IMG/VR virus record: IMGVR_UViG_2675903606_000015
DNA length: 6,148 nucleotides
Strand: one strand, 5' to 3'
Source: a virus
Lineage: Duplodnaviria; Heunggongvirae; Uroviricota; Caudoviricetes
A program made the position numbers and the translations under genes. This document shows, in pieces, positions 1 to 6,148 of the stretch. Below the pieces are notes generated by a model. It did no database searches. It saw only the letters and a list, made by a program, of their open reading frames with translations, and was not told where the DNA came from. The first letter of the stretch is position 1; each line of letters opens with the position of its first letter.

Positions 1-79
1 CGACGGTCGCCGGTTCGGTGACGCTTAATTCATTAAACACCACTCTGGCGGTTTCGGTCATATCCTGCTGTTTTAGCAT
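1..79 (-). CDS. Partial ORF (first 26 codons, runs off the left edge); hypothetical first gene downstream of the Q terminator
   Basis: Minus-strand ATG at 79..77 (second in-frame ATG at 61..59) is open to position 1: MLKQQDMTETARVVFNELSVTEPATV. It lies ~120 bp downstream of the tR'-like hairpin. Absent from the ORF track only because it is short. No family recognised. Confidence 0.3.
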   Translation of the reverse strand, partial: MLKQQDMTETARVVFNELSVTEPATV

Positions 80-202
80 GCCTTTTTCCCTTTTCCGGTT
101 AACGTGACACACCAATAACTCTTGTCGAAAAAGCCAGCAAGCTGAAAGAACGGTATTAATAACCACCAGCGAATTTATTGCGCTGCTGTATATTACGGAC
201 AC

Positions 203-223
203 AAAAAAACCACCTTCCGGTGG
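203..223 (-). terminator. Rho-independent terminator downstream of Q (tR'-like position)
   Basis: On the minus strand, CCACC-GGAA-GGTGG hairpin (plus 210-223) followed directly by a T7 run (plus 203-209). The plus-strand version lacks a U-tract, so it is unidirectional. About 100 nt downstream of the Q stop. Confidence 0.5.
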
Positions 224-320
224 CTTCCTTGTGCGAAAAAACTTGCATTTCGCCTCGCGATACAGCTTTGCGAAGCTTACAGGAATTCAAGCTGTTTCTG
301 CGTAAAAAAGCAAGCTTTTT

Positions 321-863
321 TTATCGAAATGAATCGTGCATAGGTACATAAAGCATGTGTTCAGCCACGGCTAACCAACCTGCAATACGTTTCTCACATG
401 TGCTGAAACACCATTCCGGGTGAGTACGATTTAAACATTCTGCCATTTTTCTCTTACTCATTCCCCGTCCTTCGTACCTTTGCCGGAGAATATTGATTAG
501 CCCGGGATATTCCCCAAGCACCTCACTGATAACGCGATCAATAATCAACGCCTCTGTGTCTGTACAATGTGACAACCAGCTCTTCTGCTTCCCTCTGGTC
601 ATATCCCGAAAAAATGCCTCAAGTTCCGGTTTTTCCAGCCCGGATTTCTTCATGCTGCGTAAAACCTCATTAACTGCTGTTTTCGTCAGCCTTTTCGAAA
701 CCAGTAACCGGTTAAACATATTTCCGGATTTACCCCCACCGATATACGACCACCGCCCCCACATCCGTAATTTCCCCTGGATCCAGACTGCTTCCAGCGT
801 GTTCAGGCGTAAATGTTCGCCGCTTTTGCCTGTAATTTCCGGATATATCATATTTACGCTCAC
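321..863 (-). CDS. Late-gene antiterminator Q-like protein (phage 82/QuuD-like family suspected), 180 aa
   Basis: Intact 180-aa ORF. GTG start at 863 overlaps the rusA stop (GTGA); alternative ATG at 851. Position immediately downstream of rusA and upstream of a terminator is canonical for Q. WG-W motif near the N-terminus and a C-terminal Cys cluster. Family assignment from memory only. Confidence 0.6.
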   Translation of the reverse strand: MSVNMIYPEITGKSGEHLRLNTLEAVWIQGKLRMWGRWSYIGGGKSGNMFNRLLVSKRLTKTAVNEVLRSMKKSGLEKPELEAFFRDMTRGKQKSWLSHCTDTEALIIDRVISEVLGEYPGLINILRQRYEGRGMSKRKMAECLNRTHPEWCFSTCEKRIAGWLAVAEHMLYVPMHDSFR

Positions 864-1219
864 TCACTCTCAATTTTGTAAATCTTCACACCCAGCCGTC
901 CACCAGATACTGGCTGACCACGTACAATATTGATTTCATCAAACTGCTCGTCATCAATGAGCACTCCCGCATGCGTCAGCGCATCCAGCGGTGCTTTCAG
1001 AATATTGTCCAGGTCACGACGACGCTTATCCGGTGGCTCTGCAATAATTTTTATTGCCAGCCGTCCGGACAGGCTTAATTTCAGTCGCTGCTGGCGAACA
1101 ATAAGCGCCACTGCCCGGCGATAACGCTCCCCGGCTTTTGATACAAAATATGTGCTGCCACGGCGTCGCCAGTAGGTGTTCACCGTCGGCGGGTAAGGTA
1201 AAACCAAATCTATGAGCAT
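860..1219 (-). CDS. rusA: RusA-family crossover junction endodeoxyribonuclease (Holliday junction resolvase), copy 1
   Basis: 119-aa ORF with LPYPPTVNTYWRRR and PDKRRRDLDNILKAPLDALTHAGVLIDDEQF motifs that align to E. coli RusA. Strong SD (AAGAGGTGA) 3 nt upstream of ATG at 1219. Confidence 0.85.
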   Translation of the reverse strand: MLIDLVLPYPPTVNTYWRRRGSTYFVSKAGERYRRAVALIVRQQRLKLSLSGRLAIKIIAEPPDKRRRDLDNILKAPLDALTHAGVLIDDEQFDEINIVRGQPVSGGRLGVKIYKIESE

Positions 1220-1231
1220 CAGTCACCTCTT

Positions 1232-2121
1232 TTACCCGAGCACGCCAGTCGCAAAGGCGTGATCAAGAAAACGAAAAATTAACTCAATCTGAGAGCCGTA
1301 CTTTTTCTCAAACTCCAGCGGGTCTGCATGAAGTTCGTTGTGGTGCTCCCGGCACAACGGTAACGTGAAAATATCGTGGGCCTTTGTCCCCATTCCCCCC
1401 TGACCATGACCAATCAGGTGATGCGGATCGTCAGCAGGCTTACCACAACACGCACACGGCTGTGTCTTTACCCAGCGCGTGTATTTCTCGTTAACCCAGC
1501 GGCGACGTTTAGGTCGTTTCATGAAAGATTCCGGAGACTCAGGATCAACGGCAATGCTGACCACCGTCTTTTCCTGTGGTGGGTTCTGTTGCTGGTGGGC
1601 GTGAGGCAGCGGCGCAAGATTTTTTGTGCGCTGTTTCAGTATGCTGGTGGCGGTCTGCTCTCCCGGCACGATGTCGCTTTCACGGTACATTGAGCGGATT
1701 TTTTCCGCACGCAACCCCAGCGAACGACGTAATACCGCTTCCGGTAGCGCGTCCGCCACCTGATTGCGGACCGCCCACCAGGATAATTCAGCCAGAGATA
1801 ATTCACGCTCCTGCGTACCGCTTATTGCGTGACCGATGACGTCAATCATCCAGGCTGTCAGATTTTGTTGAGCAAGCTGCCCGAGTGATTCGGATGTCTG
1901 GTCGCGCAGCTGGTTGTCGCAGTGCCAGCACAACACCATTGCGCCGGTACCATAACGGTGAATGACGGTTTCGCTGTGATGATAATCGCCGTGTGGCCAC
2001 TGGCAGGATTTAATATGGCGCAACAGCCAGTCAGACAATGCACCAGCACCACCAGCAGCACGAATCACCCGTGCGTTACTGAAAAACGGCAGCAATGTTT
2101 TGTCTTCCACTAGCGGCTGGA
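1232..2121 (-). pseudogene. DUF968 (YdfU-like) gene, 5'-truncated copy lacking about the first 53 codons
   Basis: Matches the C-terminal ~296 codons of the full copy at 2630..3679. Homology ends abruptly at 2121, where sequence switches to Q-internal sequence. The track ORF 1232..2137 uses a fortuitous GTG inside the Q fragment with no convincing SD. Stop TAA at 1234..1232. Confidence 0.6.
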
Positions 2122-2261
2122 CCGGATTTACCCCCACCGATATACGACCACCGCCCCCACATCCGTAATTTCCCCTGGATCCAGACTGCTTCCAGCGTGT
2201 TCAGGCGTAAATGTTCGCCGCTTTTGCCTGTAATTTCCGGATATATCATATTTACGCTCAC
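2122..2261 (-). pseudogene. Q-like antiterminator 5' fragment (first 47 codons only)
   Basis: Identical to 724..863. Reading frame runs past the junction at 2121 into out-of-frame DUF968 sequence and stops at 2076 (track ORF 2076..2261, 61 aa). Confidence 0.7.
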
Positions 2262-2617
2262 TCACTCTCAATTTTGTAAATCTTCACACCCAGCCGTCCA
2301 CCAGATACTGGCTGACCACGTACAATATTGATTTCATCAAACTGCTCGTCATCAATGAGCACTCCCGCATGCGTCAGCGCATCCAGCGGTGCTTTCAGAA
2401 TATTGTCCAGGTCACGACGACGCTTATCCGGTGGCTCTGCAATAATTTTTATTGCCAGCCGTCCGGACAGGCTTAATTTCAGTCGCTGCTGGCGAACAAT
2501 AAGCGCCACTGCCCGGCGATAACGCTCCCCGGCTTTTGATACAAAATATGTGCTGCCACGGCGTCGCCAGTAAGTGTTCACCGTCGGCGGGTAAGGTAAA
2601 ACCAAATCTATGAGCAT
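2258..2617 (-). CDS. rusA: RusA-family Holliday junction resolvase, copy 2 (intact)
   Basis: Protein identical to copy 1. One synonymous nucleotide difference (2573 A vs 1175 G). Same SD. Confidence 0.85.
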   Translation of the reverse strand: MLIDLVLPYPPTVNTYWRRRGSTYFVSKAGERYRRAVALIVRQQRLKLSLSGRLAIKIIAEPPDKRRRDLDNILKAPLDALTHAGVLIDDEQFDEINIVRGQPVSGGRLGVKIYKIESE

Positions 2618-2629
2618 CAGTCACCTCTT

Positions 2630-3679
2630 TTACCCGAGCACGCCAGTCGCAAAGGCGTGATCAAGAAAACGAAAAATTAACTCAATCTGAGAGCCGTACT
2701 TTTTCTCAAACTCCAGCGGGTCTGCATGAAGTTCGTTGTGGTGCTCCCGGCACAACGGTAACGTGAAAATATCGTGGGCCTTTGTCCCCATTCCCCCCTG
2801 ACCATGACCAATCAGGTGATGCGGATCGTCAGCAGGCTTACCACAACACGCACACGGCTGTGTCTTTACCCAGCGCGTGTATTTCTCATTTACCCAGCGG
2901 CGACGTTTAGGTCGTTTCATGAAGGATTCCGGAGACTCCGGATCAACGGCAATGCTGACCACCGTCTTTTCCTGTGGTGGGTTCTGTTGCTGGTGGGTGT
3001 GAGACGGTAGCGCAATATTTTTTGTGCGCTGCTTCAGTATGCTGGTGGCGGTCTGTTCTCCCGGTATGATGTCGCTTTCACGGTATACGGAGCGGATTTT
3101 TTCCGCTGGTAATCCCAGCGAACGACGCGCTACTGCCTCAGGTAGTGCATCCACCACCTGATTGCAGGCCGCCCACCAGGATAATTCGGCCAGCGATAAC
3201 TCCCTCTCCTGCGTACCGCTTATTGCGTGACGGATGACATCAATCATCCAAGCAACCAGATTCTGCTGAGCAAGTTGATCGAGTGATTCTGATGTCTGGT
3301 CGCGCAGCTGGTTGTCACAGTGCCAGCACAACACCATTGCGCCGGTACCATAACGGTGAATGACGGTTTCGCTGTGATGATAATCGCCGTGTGGCCACTG
3401 GCAGGATTTAATATGGCGCAACAGCCAGTCAGACAATGCACCAGCACCACCAGCAGCACGAATCACCCGTGCGTTACTGAAAAACGGCAGCAATGTTTTG
3501 TCTTCCACTAGCGGCTGGCGAACGGCAGGAACAACCCCGGACGGCAGATTACGCATGCTTTTCGGTTCCGGCTCCACCAGTACCCGGGTATTGTGGAATA
3601 CCGGCATGGATTCACGGCCCGGCTTAACGATCACCAGCCCGAGTTCCGGTACCAGAACAGGTCGAAGTAATACCCGCAC
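2630..3679 (-). CDS. DUF968 (YdfU-like) protein, full length 349 aa, with C-terminal Cys/His-rich HNH-like zinc-finger motif
   Basis: GTG start at 3679 preceded by GGAGGT SD. C-terminus CACCGKPADDPHHLIGHGQ...LCREHHNELH. Length matches E. coli YdfU (349 aa, from memory). This is the only copy with both N- and C-terminal parts. Confidence 0.7.
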   Translation of the reverse strand: MRVLLRPVLVPELGLVIVKPGRESMPVFHNTRVLVEPEPKSMRNLPSGVVPAVRQPLVEDKTLLPFFSNARVIRAAGGAGALSDWLLRHIKSCQWPHGDYHHSETVIHRYGTGAMVLCWHCDNQLRDQTSESLDQLAQQNLVAWMIDVIRHAISGTQERELSLAELSWWAACNQVVDALPEAVARRSLGLPAEKIRSVYRESDIIPGEQTATSILKQRTKNIALPSHTHQQQNPPQEKTVVSIAVDPESPESFMKRPKRRRWVNEKYTRWVKTQPCACCGKPADDPHHLIGHGQGGMGTKAHDIFTLPLCREHHNELHADPLEFEKKYGSQIELIFRFLDHAFATGVLG

Positions 3680-3680
3680 G

Positions 3681-3892
3681 TTACCTCCAGATGCGTTGCT
3701 GGAATGTGCGGGACGGACGCGGCGGGCGTTCGGAATAAAGGAGCCTGACGTAGATTATCCAGTGACGGTAGTCGAGGCTAAGGGCTTTCTTAAACTCATA
3801 CCCACGTCTGCGGTAGTTATGAATCAGCCATTCGGCCTGTTCTTCAGTGCAGGGATCGTGCTGATACCAGTCATATTTGAATGTGTGAGAAA
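3681..3892 (-). pseudogene. 3' fragment (about 70 C-terminal codons) of the 108-aa hypothetical gene
   Basis: Identical to 4697..4908. Loses homology at the 3892|3893 junction. No start codon of its own. Contains the SD for the downstream DUF968 copy. Confidence 0.6.
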
Positions 3893-4695
3893 GTGTATTT
3901 CTCGTTAACCCAGCGGCGACGTTTAGGTCGTTTCATGAAAGATTCCGGAGACTCAGGATCAACGGCAATGCTGACCACCGTCTTTTCCTGTGGTGGGTTC
4001 TGTTGCTGGTGGGCGTGAGGCAGCGGCGCAAGATTTTTTGTGCGCTGTTTCAGTATGCTGGTGGCGGTCTGCTCTCCCGGCACGATGTCGCTTTCACGGT
4101 ACATTGAGCGGATTTTTTCCGCACGCAACCCCAGCGAACGACGTAATACCGCTTCCGGTAGCGCGTCCGCCACCTGATTGCGGACCGCCCACCAGGATAA
4201 TTCAGCCAGAGATAATTCACGCTCCTGCGTACCGCTTATTGCGTGACCGATGACGTCAATCATCCAGGCTGTCAGATTTTGTTGAGCAAGCTGCCCGAGT
4301 GATTCGGATGTCTGGTCGCGCAGCTGGTTGTCGCAGTGCCAGCACAACACCATTGCGCCGGTACCATAACGGTGAATGACGGTTTCGCTGTGATGATAAT
4401 CGCCGTGTGGCCACTGGCAGGATTTAATATGGCGCAACAGCCAGTCAGACAATGCACCAGCACCACCAGCAGCACGAATCACCCGTGCGTTACTGAAAAA
4501 CGGCAGCAATGTTTTGTCTTCCACTAGCGGCTGGCGAACGGCAGGAACAACCCCGGACGGCAGATTACGCATGCTTTTCGGTTCCGGCTCCACCAGTACC
4601 CGGGTATTGTGGAATACCGGCATGGATTCACGGCCCGGCTTAACGATCACCAGCCCAAGTTCCGGTACCAGAACAGGTCGAAGTAATACCCGCAC
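3893..4695 (-). pseudogene. DUF968 (YdfU-like) gene, 3'-truncated copy (N-terminal 268 codons, lacks the Cys/His domain)
   Basis: GTG start at 4695 with GGAGGT SD. Identical to the copy-1 allele over the shared region. After codon ~268 the frame enters the out-of-frame 108-aa gene fragment and stops at 3871 (track ORF 3871..4695, 274 aa ending FSHIQI). Confidence 0.6.
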
Positions 4696-4696
4696 G

Positions 4697-5023
4697 TTAC
4701 CTCCAGATGCGTTGCTGGAATGTGCGGGACGGACGCGGCGGGCGTTCGGAATAAAGGAGCCTGACGTAGATTATCCAGTGACGGTAGTCGAGGCTAAGGG
4801 CTTTCTTAAACTCATACCCACGTCTGCGGTAGTTATGAATCAGCCATTCGGCCTGTTCTTCAGTGCAGGGATCGTGCTGATACCAGTCATATTTGAATGT
4901 GTGAGAATACCGCCCTTGCCTGCTGGCAGGGGCGATATCAGAATTGTGATGTTTGGTATTGTGCGCCATCGGTTTTCTCTGCTGGCGCAGCAGGTGCCAG
5001 TTGTTCAAGCTGGCGTGCGGCAA
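4697..5023 (-). CDS. Hypothetical phage protein (108 aa from TTG at 5023; about 90 aa if started at ATG 4969), translationally coupled to DUF968
   Basis: Its TAA stop (4699..4697) is one base from the GTG start of DUF968, and the DUF968 SD lies in its last codons. Protein is basic and Trp/Tyr-rich (KYDWYQHDPCTEEQAEWLIHNYRRRGYEF). No family recognised. Confidence 0.45.
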   Translation of the reverse strand: MPHASLNNWHLLRQQRKPMAHNTKHHNSDIAPASRQGRYSHTFKYDWYQHDPCTEEQAEWLIHNYRRRGYEFKKALSLDYRHWIIYVRLLYSERPPRPSRTFQQRIWR

Positions 5024-5038
5024 TATTGTCTCTGATTT

Positions 5039-5069
5039 CTGTTGTCGTCAACAGGCAACGTGCTATCAT
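5039..5069 (+). promoter_or_regulatory. Candidate parDE promoter with overlapping palindromic operator
   Basis: Perfect inverted repeat CTGTTG-N4-CAACAG at 5039-5054 overlaps a -35-like TTGTCG (5042-5047). 16-bp spacer, then -10-like TATCAT (5064-5069), about 35 bp upstream of the parD ATG. On the other strand the same palindrome contains TTGACG, a possible -35 for the divergent phage operon. Confidence 0.3.
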
Positions 5070-5104
5070 CGAATGGTGTTCTATCCTACTCCGTGAGGTT
5101 TACC

Positions 5105-5362
5105 ATGCGTACAACCCAACAATTCAGCATTACATTAACTAACGAAATGGCTGACATGGTGCGCGCCCGTGTGGCTTCCGGTGCCTATGCTTCAGAAAGC
5201 GAGGTCATTCGTGAAGGGCTTCGCGCACTGAATGAGCGCGATAAAGCAATCGAAGCGTGGTTAACGCATTCAGCCGCCCCCTCTCTTGATTCTATCCGCG
5301 AAAACCCAAACAACGGACGCTCCATTTCACAGGTTCGCGCCGCGATTCGATCCGGGAAGTAA
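5105..5362 (+). CDS. parD: ParD-type (COG3609-like, ribbon-helix-helix) type II antitoxin, 85 aa
   Basis: ATG at 5105 with GAGG 8 nt upstream; the track ORF start at 5042 would lie inside the promoter/operator. Sequence VRARVASGAYASESEVIREGLRALNERDKAIEAWL matches the conserved ParD/CopG-like core. Stop is 5 nt before the toxin ATG. Confidence 0.7.
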   Translation: MRTTQQFSITLTNEMADMVRARVASGAYASESEVIREGLRALNERDKAIEAWLTHSAAPSLDSIRENPNNGRSISQVRAAIRSGK

Positions 5363-5367
5363 TCTGC

Positions 5368-5667
5368 ATGACATATGAAGTCATCATTACTCCTGAGGCC
5401 GAACAACAAATAATCAACCTGCACAGGTATATAACGGAGAAAGCAGGGAACGTCATTGCTGACAATTATGCCAATGCGCTTCTTGATTATCTTGATGGGT
5501 TTTCTACATTCCCGCATCGGGGCAATAAACGCGATGATATTCGCCAGGGGATGCGGGTAACTCATTTCCGCCACAGAACGATTATTGCTTTTGCCGTTGA
5601 TAGCAGAAAAGTCTTTATTGTCGGTATCTATCATGGTGGGCAAAGTTATGAAACCGATTTCTTATAA
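5368..5667 (+). CDS. parE: ParE/RelE-superfamily type II toxin, 99 aa
   Basis: Small basic protein directly downstream of the RHH antitoxin. C-terminal FPHRGNKRDDIRQGMRVTHFRHRTIIAFAVDSRKVFIVGIYHGGQSY resembles the ParE fold signature. Classic antitoxin-then-toxin operon order. Confidence 0.7.
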   Translation: MTYEVIITPEAEQQIINLHRYITEKAGNVIADNYANALLDYLDGFSTFPHRGNKRDDIRQGMRVTHFRHRTIIAFAVDSRKVFIVGIYHGGQSYETDFL

Positions 5668-5740
5668 ACTTTTACCCACATCATTCCGGTGTTAGAATTA
5701 ACCGTCCGCCCCCCTCTCTTACTGGCGGATTCGTAGGCTA

Positions 5741-5775
5741 TATAAATCAAAGATCCCGGCTCATGTTTATGTCGG
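5741..5775 (+). terminator. Intrinsic terminator after parE, possibly bidirectional
   Basis: Stem AGATCCCGGC (5741-5750) / GTCGGGATCT (5761-5770) with a 10-nt loop, followed by T6 (5770-5775). On the minus strand the same hairpin is followed by TTGATTTATATA, so it may also end the converging minus-strand ORFs. Confidence 0.6.
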
Positions 5776-5792
5776 GATCTTTTTTCGGCGAT

Positions 5793-5876
5793 TTATCCCC
5801 AGCGGCAAATCGAATACACCACCAGCGCCACCGCCATCGCAATTCCTACCGTTGTGAATGCTTCAGGCCAGGTCAT
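5793..5876 (-). CDS. 27-codon hydrophobic small ORF (predicted single-pass membrane peptide)
   Basis: MTWPEAFTTVGIAMAVALVVYSICRWG. Its ATG (5876..5874) overlaps the TGA stop of the upstream ORF (5875..5873) as ATGA. Ends with TAA at 5795..5793, just before the terminator. Not in the ORF track because it is short. Confidence 0.4.
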   Translation of the reverse strand: MTWPEAFTTVGIAMAVALVVYSICRWG

Positions 5877-6148
5877 CGTAAAATATCCTCCACGCTTATC
5901 AGTCCGTTCCGCTCCAGATAACTCATCGCCTTATCCGGTAATTTGCAGTCTGGCTTCGCTTTCCTCAGTTGCCAGGTTAACTGCTTTACCAGCATGGTTA
6001 ACTCATCGACCAGACGCTGATATCCCACTGGTTTGTATTCATGCAATTTACCGGCTGGCTCTGCTGCCAGCGATACCAGTGCGATTTCCAGAACAGCAAT
6101 ATCCATCTTATATGTGCGGATGATGTCATGGTCGATTGTGCCCGGTAT
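5873..6148 (-). CDS. Partial ORF of unknown function (C-terminal 91 codons; N-terminus beyond the right edge)
   Basis: Minus-strand frame is open from 6148 with no stop; the track shows only the part from the internal Met at 6106. Protein-like composition (…YLERNGLISVEDILR), whereas the antisense ORF 5854..6123 is Pro/Ser/Leu-rich and shadow-like. Confidence 0.45.
   Translation of the reverse strand: MPGTIDHDIIRTYKMDIAVLEIALVSLAAEPAGKLHEYKPVGYQRLVDELTMLVKQLTWQLRKAKPDCKLPDKAMSYLERNGLISVEDILR

Follow-up and report, generated by a model that had tools for sequence, protein, structure and literature searches.

A probable natural module exchange in a prophage DUF968 gene and an apparent tandem array produced by scaffolding in a draft Escherichia coli assembly

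Introduction

Mosaic exchange among lambdoid prophages is well known, including exchange between STEC prophages that reside together in the same host. The false duplications that scaffolding can introduce into draft genomes are well known too. Both phenomena bear on the locus described here, the central gene of which encodes a DUF968 protein. To our knowledge, no biochemical function has been described for the 349-aa form of DUF968 found in E. coli. In the His-Me finger (HNH) superfamily, DUF968 was placed in group 7 together with YdfU and DUF1364/YbcO, and the context given for the family is a prophage one, beside rusA and the antiterminator Q gene (PMC5714182). Elsewhere, an HNH zinc-finger motif fused to an Orf-like domain was described for DUF968 (PMC4118853).

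The window, i.e. the whole stretch of DNA analyzed here, is 6,148 nucleotides long and shows what looks like three copies of a segment carrying rusA and DUF968. In the original prediction, the middle copy was seen as a member of a tandem array that had been converted over part of its length by a diverged functional homologue, and the history of the array was discussed on that basis. In the present analysis, the three copies were compared with one another, with the public record of the contig, and with DUF968 alleles from complete genomes and IMG/VR.

Results

The features of the window are collected in Table 1. The product of the full-length DUF968 ORF matched PF06147 with 260.5 bits (cut-off 27.8) over residues 160 to 346, and the full model (positions 1-171) was covered. 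Its C-terminal part bears the Cys/His motif CACCG...HH...C..HH..H, and a weak match to HNHc_6 was found at residues 271-320, with 23.1 bits against a cut-off of 26.6. A PDB sequence search with the 349-aa protein found no relative. The DUF968 gene is located between a small ORF and rusA, with the RusA gene and the DUF1133/Q-like gene immediately downstream, and the order DUF968-rusA-Q-like is kept in the loci L001 to L008.

Several other elements surround these genes. The small ORFs at 4697-5023 and 5873-6106, both on the minus strand, have no Pfam match, and in complete genomes their counterparts at these positions bear the annotation of hypothetical proteins. Positions 5105-5667 (plus strand) encode a ParD/ParE toxin-antitoxin pair, upstream of DUF968 and of the small ORF beside it. 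The same slot is occupied in L002, L003, L005 and L007 either by hokD or by a toxin of the RelE/ParE family together with an HTH protein. Since the cassettes differ from locus to locus, the slot seems to hold interchangeable toxin-antitoxin cassettes. At the other end of the window, the minus strand contains a G+C-rich hairpin (CCACC GGAA GGTGG) followed by seven T at positions 197-223, which places it some 100 nt downstream from the Q-like gene; the hairpin scan reported this hairpin on the plus strand only. Judged from its sequence, this hairpin looks like an intrinsic terminator at a late-operon tR'-type position.

Table 1. Coordinates of the genes, scaffold pieces, modules and breakpoint intervals in the window.
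Feature	Position	Strand	Remarks
DUF1133/Q-like antiterminator gene	321..863	-	PF06576, 365 bits; Phage_antitermQ, 35 bits
RusA Holliday-junction resolvase gene	860..1219	-	PF05866; repeated at 2258-2617 in piece 2
DUF968 ORF, piece 1	1232..2137	-	N-terminal part lost at join 2121
DUF968 ORF, full-length, 349 aa	2630..3679	-	Pfam PF06147; CTT83763.1 / WP_053879785.1
DUF968 ORF, piece 3	3871..4695	-	C-terminal part lost at join 3892
Scaffold piece 1	1..2120	.	Collapsed-locus 1-2120
Scaffold gap	2121..2121	.	N in public record, A in window
Scaffold piece 2	2122..3891	.	Collapsed-locus 724-2493; c' and the only intact DUF968 ORF
Scaffold gap	3892..3892	.	N in public record, A in window
Scaffold piece 3	3893..6148	.	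Collapsed-locus 1479-3734
Alternative middle module c, piece 1	1490..1919	-	Same as 3904-4333
Divergent middle module c' of DUF968	2888..3317	-	50 substitutions vs both other copies
Alternative middle module c, piece 3	3904..4333	-	Same as 1490-1919
Longest tract identical to L002 allele	2877..3337	-	L002 next differs at window 2876 and 3338
Low-coordinate breakpoint interval	2877..2887		11 nt common to both lineages
High-coordinate breakpoint interval	3318..3337		20 nt common to both lineages

A search for the exact DUF968 protein led to contig CYAZ01000130.1 (6148 bp) in the draft E. coli assembly GCA_001284505.1, and the window covers this contig from end to end. The reverse complement of this contig (L004) is the same as the window except for an N at positions 2121 and 3892. 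The ambiguous bases were evidently swapped for A when the window was prepared, and the scaffold gaps were thereby hidden from a sequence-only reading. The N at both junctions means that the contig is made of three pieces, with a gap of a single N at each join. The overlap amounts to 1397 nt between pieces 1 and 2, to 1015 nt between pieces 2 and 3, and to 642 nt between pieces 1 and 3, and piece 2 opens with a repeat of the first 140 nt of the Q-like gene (2122-2261). When collapsed, the three pieces form a locus of 3734 nt that aligns without gaps to the complete-genome locus L001, with 69 mismatches, and the top complete-genome matches each span about 3730 nt, which is one copy. According to these results, the three-copy array is a scaffolding artefact made of three overlapping contigs. 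The middle copy has the only intact DUF968 ORF, and the ORFs at 1232-2137 and 3871-4695 are truncated merely because they were cut by the scaffold joins.

The A shown at 2121 and 3892 had also been considered as a non-templated filler or as the remnant of a third paralogue, and this question became moot with the N that the public record has at both positions. An A at collapsed-locus 1478 occurs in the natural alleles L007 and L008, and an A at collapsed-locus 2121 occurs in the natural IMG/VR alleles L009-L011; an A placed directly after the precise end of c was found in no complete genome. A literature search for the assembly GCA_001284505.1 and its WGS accessions found no mention of them.

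A similar arrangement was seen elsewhere in IMG/VR. In two unrelated loci (L044:5228 and L033:5165), the full DUF968 copy is followed, about 2.7 kb further downstream, by a second and partial one that has a single N directly before it. These partial copies probably represent the same scaffolding artefact in other assemblies.

The repeat copies of the three pieces were then compared base by base without gaps, copy 2 being offset by 1398 from copy 1 and by 1016 from copy 3. Within 2888-3317, copy 2 differed at 50 of 430 positions (11.6%), in agreement with the original estimate of about 50; the other figures of the original prediction were correct as well. The substitutions are at the same 50 sites in both comparisons, the first at 2888 and the last at 3317. 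Beyond this patch each comparison revealed a single SNP, at 1175/2573 for copy 1 and at 3641/4657 for copy 3, and the 642 nt common to copies 1 and 3 are 100% identical. Both isolated SNPs are synonymous, as predicted: the translations of the RusA ORFs are identical, and codon 13 of DUF968 is CTT in one copy and CTC in the other. The differences are clustered far more than chance would allow, with 50 in 430 nt versus one in 967 nt (Fisher p = 1.2e-25).

At the protein level, the patch covers residues 121-264 of the 349-aa DUF968 protein (minus strand), so that the swapped module is located upstream of the HNH-like motif (aa 271-320). Forty codons differ between the two versions, 25 of them synonymously, and the remaining 15 change 15 of the 144 residues, so that most of the changes are silent, as had been proposed. 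The Nei-Gojobori estimates for the patch were dN = 0.061 and dS = 0.387, giving a dN/dS of about 0.16. The two versions of the middle module, c and c', are both intact and both under purifying selection, which accounts for the excess of synonymous differences. The window contains two DUF968 alleles that have their outer modules in common and differ in the middle one.

The source of the patch was searched for in complete genomes. With 2860-3340 as query, DUF968 alleles of O145/O157 STEC prophages were recovered at 99.6-99.8% identity, and 15 complete genomes were at least 99% identical to the patch. The corresponding stretch in copies 1 and 3 belongs to a different lineage, with a best identity of 98.1% in complete genomes, and the two segments thus lead to separate lineages, as the original prediction had anticipated. 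The longest identical tract (461 nt, Table 1) is 100% identical to the DUF968 gene of a prophage of E. coli O157 FDAARGOS_293 (L002, NZ_CP022050.2). The nearest differences from L002 are at collapsed-locus 1478 (window 2876) and 1940 (window 3338). To the left of the tract, 11 differences are found over collapsed-locus 1325-1478, and to the right, 28 differences over 1940-2138; outside the tract, the L002 flanks show 4-15 differences per 60 nt from the window.

Because L002 diverges immediately beyond both edges of the tract, the patch is not merely a variable core with conserved ends. A variable core between universally conserved ends was rejected as the whole account, as the donor lineage departs from the window by 7-20% in the flanks too. 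The 100% identity of the tract to a natural allele, together with the dN/dS of 0.16, ruled out sequencing error or decay as the origin of the patch. These results showed that the patch is a segment of another natural DUF968 lineage placed in a different background, and the proposed import from a diverged functional homologue was borne out. In the phage collection, the best match of the c' module reached 90.6%, so that the donor lineage is known from prophages only.

The position of the patch edges was examined in a set of 90 natural DUF968 alleles, composed of 80 alleles from IMG/VR, 3 further IMG/VR loci and 7 alleles from complete E. coli genomes. Among them, the 5' (gene positions 1-362), middle (363-792) and 3' (from about 804) segments reassort freely. 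Fifteen alleles combine the 3' module of the window with a different middle module, and in 14 of these the mismatches end at gene position 792 (window 2888). Where the 3' module is diverged (72 alleles), the first mismatch is at gene position 804 (collapsed-locus 1478) in 50 cases. The 5' module of the window is present in 21 alleles, of which 13 depart from the middle copy for the first time at gene position 363 (window 3317). Both edges of the patch are thus junctions that recur in independent natural alleles. The presence of the same junctions in many independent alleles indicates that DUF968 acts as a three-module mosaic gene.

In E. coli E2865, both lineages are present in two prophages (X and Y) of one chromosome. 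Prophage X (L005, NZ_AP018808.1, 1882167-1892644) carries the left flank and the rusA gene of the window and then, from around position 1600, the c' module. On the low-coordinate side it has its breakpoint between collapsed-locus 1541 and 1600, compared with 1479-1489 in the window, and on the high-coordinate side it has none, the sequence remaining O157-like beyond position 1940. E2865 X is an independent recombinant of the same two lineages.

Two further observations concern the outer pieces. At 1175 (G) and 4657 (A) it is the outer pieces that hold the unusual base: the middle piece has the base of all aligned comparators at both sites (L001, E2865 X and E2865 Y for the SNP at 1175; L001 and E2865 Y for the SNP at 4657). 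Moreover, the resident middle module shows about 6-8 differences from L001 and L003 in roughly 50 nt, at 1853-1904 (= 4267-4318), and outside this interval it is nearly identical to these closest natural relatives. The cluster at 1853-1904 may be a second, smaller mosaic patch.

Discussion

Since the joins are N and the pieces collapse to one locus, the patch marks two versions of one locus and not a conversion within an array. The reading favored here, at a probability of about 0.75, is that the contig is a scaffold of overlapping contigs that also holds a natural module swap, with piece 2 coming most likely from a paralogous prophage of the same genome. Three overlapping contigs from the nin/Q regions of lambdoid prophages would have been strung together with single-N gaps in a short-read draft scaffold. 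Pieces 1 and 3 would then represent an ordinary single-copy locus with the Q-like gene, rusA, DUF968, the small ORF and parDE, and piece 2 would give the central 1.77 kb of this locus in a second version, set apart by the module swap and two SNPs. The most likely source of piece 2 would be a second, paralogous lambdoid prophage, whose co-residence in the same genome we infer. In complete STEC-like genomes, DUF968-bearing prophages are found in up to 9 places per genome, and both lineages co-reside in E2865 and in other complete genomes. A point against this reading is that the 90 natural loci show no homology boundary at the piece ends 724, 2120 and 2493 of the collapsed locus, so that the repeat structure by itself does not account for where the contigs stop; 1479 is the only piece end that coincides with a recurrent junction. 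The swap itself would have resulted from homologous recombination among lambdoid phages or prophages, within a pair of short conserved junctions (11 and 20 nt); the timing and the direction of this exchange, as well as the enzymes responsible, are what we infer here.

A different origin of piece 2 has to be considered, namely that it is an assembly chimera in which c' from an O157-type (L002) or E2865-X-type prophage was joined to collapsed resident flanking repeats, the sharply bounded mosaic allele then being present on no single DNA molecule. Neither breakpoint was found exactly in any complete genome, the best match, at 99.6%, having 2 mismatches in 481 nt, and the exact 349-aa mosaic protein is on record only on CYAZ01000130.1, so that the allele is either unique or perhaps a chimera. 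The missing high-coordinate breakpoint would fit such a chimera, and so would the natural arrangement of E2865 X, in which the left flank, b and c' already follow one another and the sequence stays O157-like past 1940. The same scaffold also indicates that the assembly had trouble with these paralogues. However, the usual k-mers and overlaps of short-read assemblers are longer than the 11 and 20 nt of identity available at the breakpoints, which makes a chimeric join there unlikely. Piece 2 has no internal N, and both edges of the patch are used in many natural alleles, so that a genuine recombinant is plausible. Altogether, a chimeric piece 2 is considered unlikely.

The second alternative is that the array is real, i.e. 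a tandem partial triplication of rusA-DUF968 in which the middle copy was converted from another prophage. The order in which the scaffolder placed the pieces is the one that a tandem would give, and an N marks a join only as unresolved. Nevertheless, both joins are N and not sequence, and the overlap of more than 1 kb between adjacent pieces is what would be expected for negative-gap joins over one locus. Among 5,426 complete E. coli genomes, none covers either junction (2121 or 3892), the junctions had 0 matches in the GTDB representative genomes and 0 in IMG/VR, and no microhomology was found at the putative junctions. Moreover, perfect repeats of 642-755 nt would presumably be beyond the resolution of short reads. 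A real triplication is thus very improbable, and the converted array member and the array history that had been built on it found no support.

Finally, a mixed sample, in which two strains or subpopulations have one prophage in different allelic forms, would agree with the allele-like divergence of piece 2 outside the patch (1 SNP in 755 nt and 1 SNP in 574 nt) and with piece 2 ending off the known mosaic boundaries, but it has very little probability, as STEC-like genomes routinely hold several DUF968-bearing prophages and the two lineages are found together in complete genomes such as E2865.

The preferred reading, an overlapping-contig scaffold with a natural swap, leaves room for a functional interpretation of the exchanged segment. 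Residues 121-264 could form a cassette for specificity in a prophage His-Me finger nuclease, exchangeable and under selection, with the two junctions as the cassette borders. The data are compatible with this idea, because several diverged middle modules join the same outer modules at the same two junctions, and because each middle version is under purifying selection. As an explanation of the swap, it is nonetheless quite doubtful. If it were true, exchange of the cassette would alter what DUF968 recognizes (e.g. a DNA structure or a partner protein), and the mosaicism would not be neutral.

For users of this contig, the main message is one of caution. What looks like a tandem array with a converted middle copy is three overlapping contigs whose Ns were shown as A, and any duplication history, truncated genes or junction mechanisms inferred from CYAZ01000130.1 would be wrong. 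What remains as biology is a clean and ordinary exchange of a sub-genic module among lambdoid prophages, with the donor lineage identified. The three-module structure of DUF968 could also aid later work on this uncharacterized HNH-like prophage protein.

Compared with known systems, the locus brings nothing new in kind; it combines known lambdoid mosaicism with an assembly artefact. The protein shares with DUF968/YdfU of the Qin prophage a strong Pfam match, the C-terminal Cys/His motif, and rusA and Q-like genes as neighbors. The apparent array resembles the false segmental duplications produced by negative-gap scaffolding in its single Ns at the joins, its overlaps of 1397 and 1015 nt, a collapsed sequence that equals the canonical locus, and a pattern found again in the IMG/VR loci L033 and L044; it differs in that the supplied window shows A where N is expected. 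As in lambdoid mosaicism, a tract identical to another lineage is set between diverged flanks, the junctions recur, intact and selected versions exist, and the site is in the nin/Q region beside rusA. The differences are that the unit exchanged here is sub-genic (aa 121-264) and not a whole gene, and that the modules are seen in exactly this combination nowhere else.
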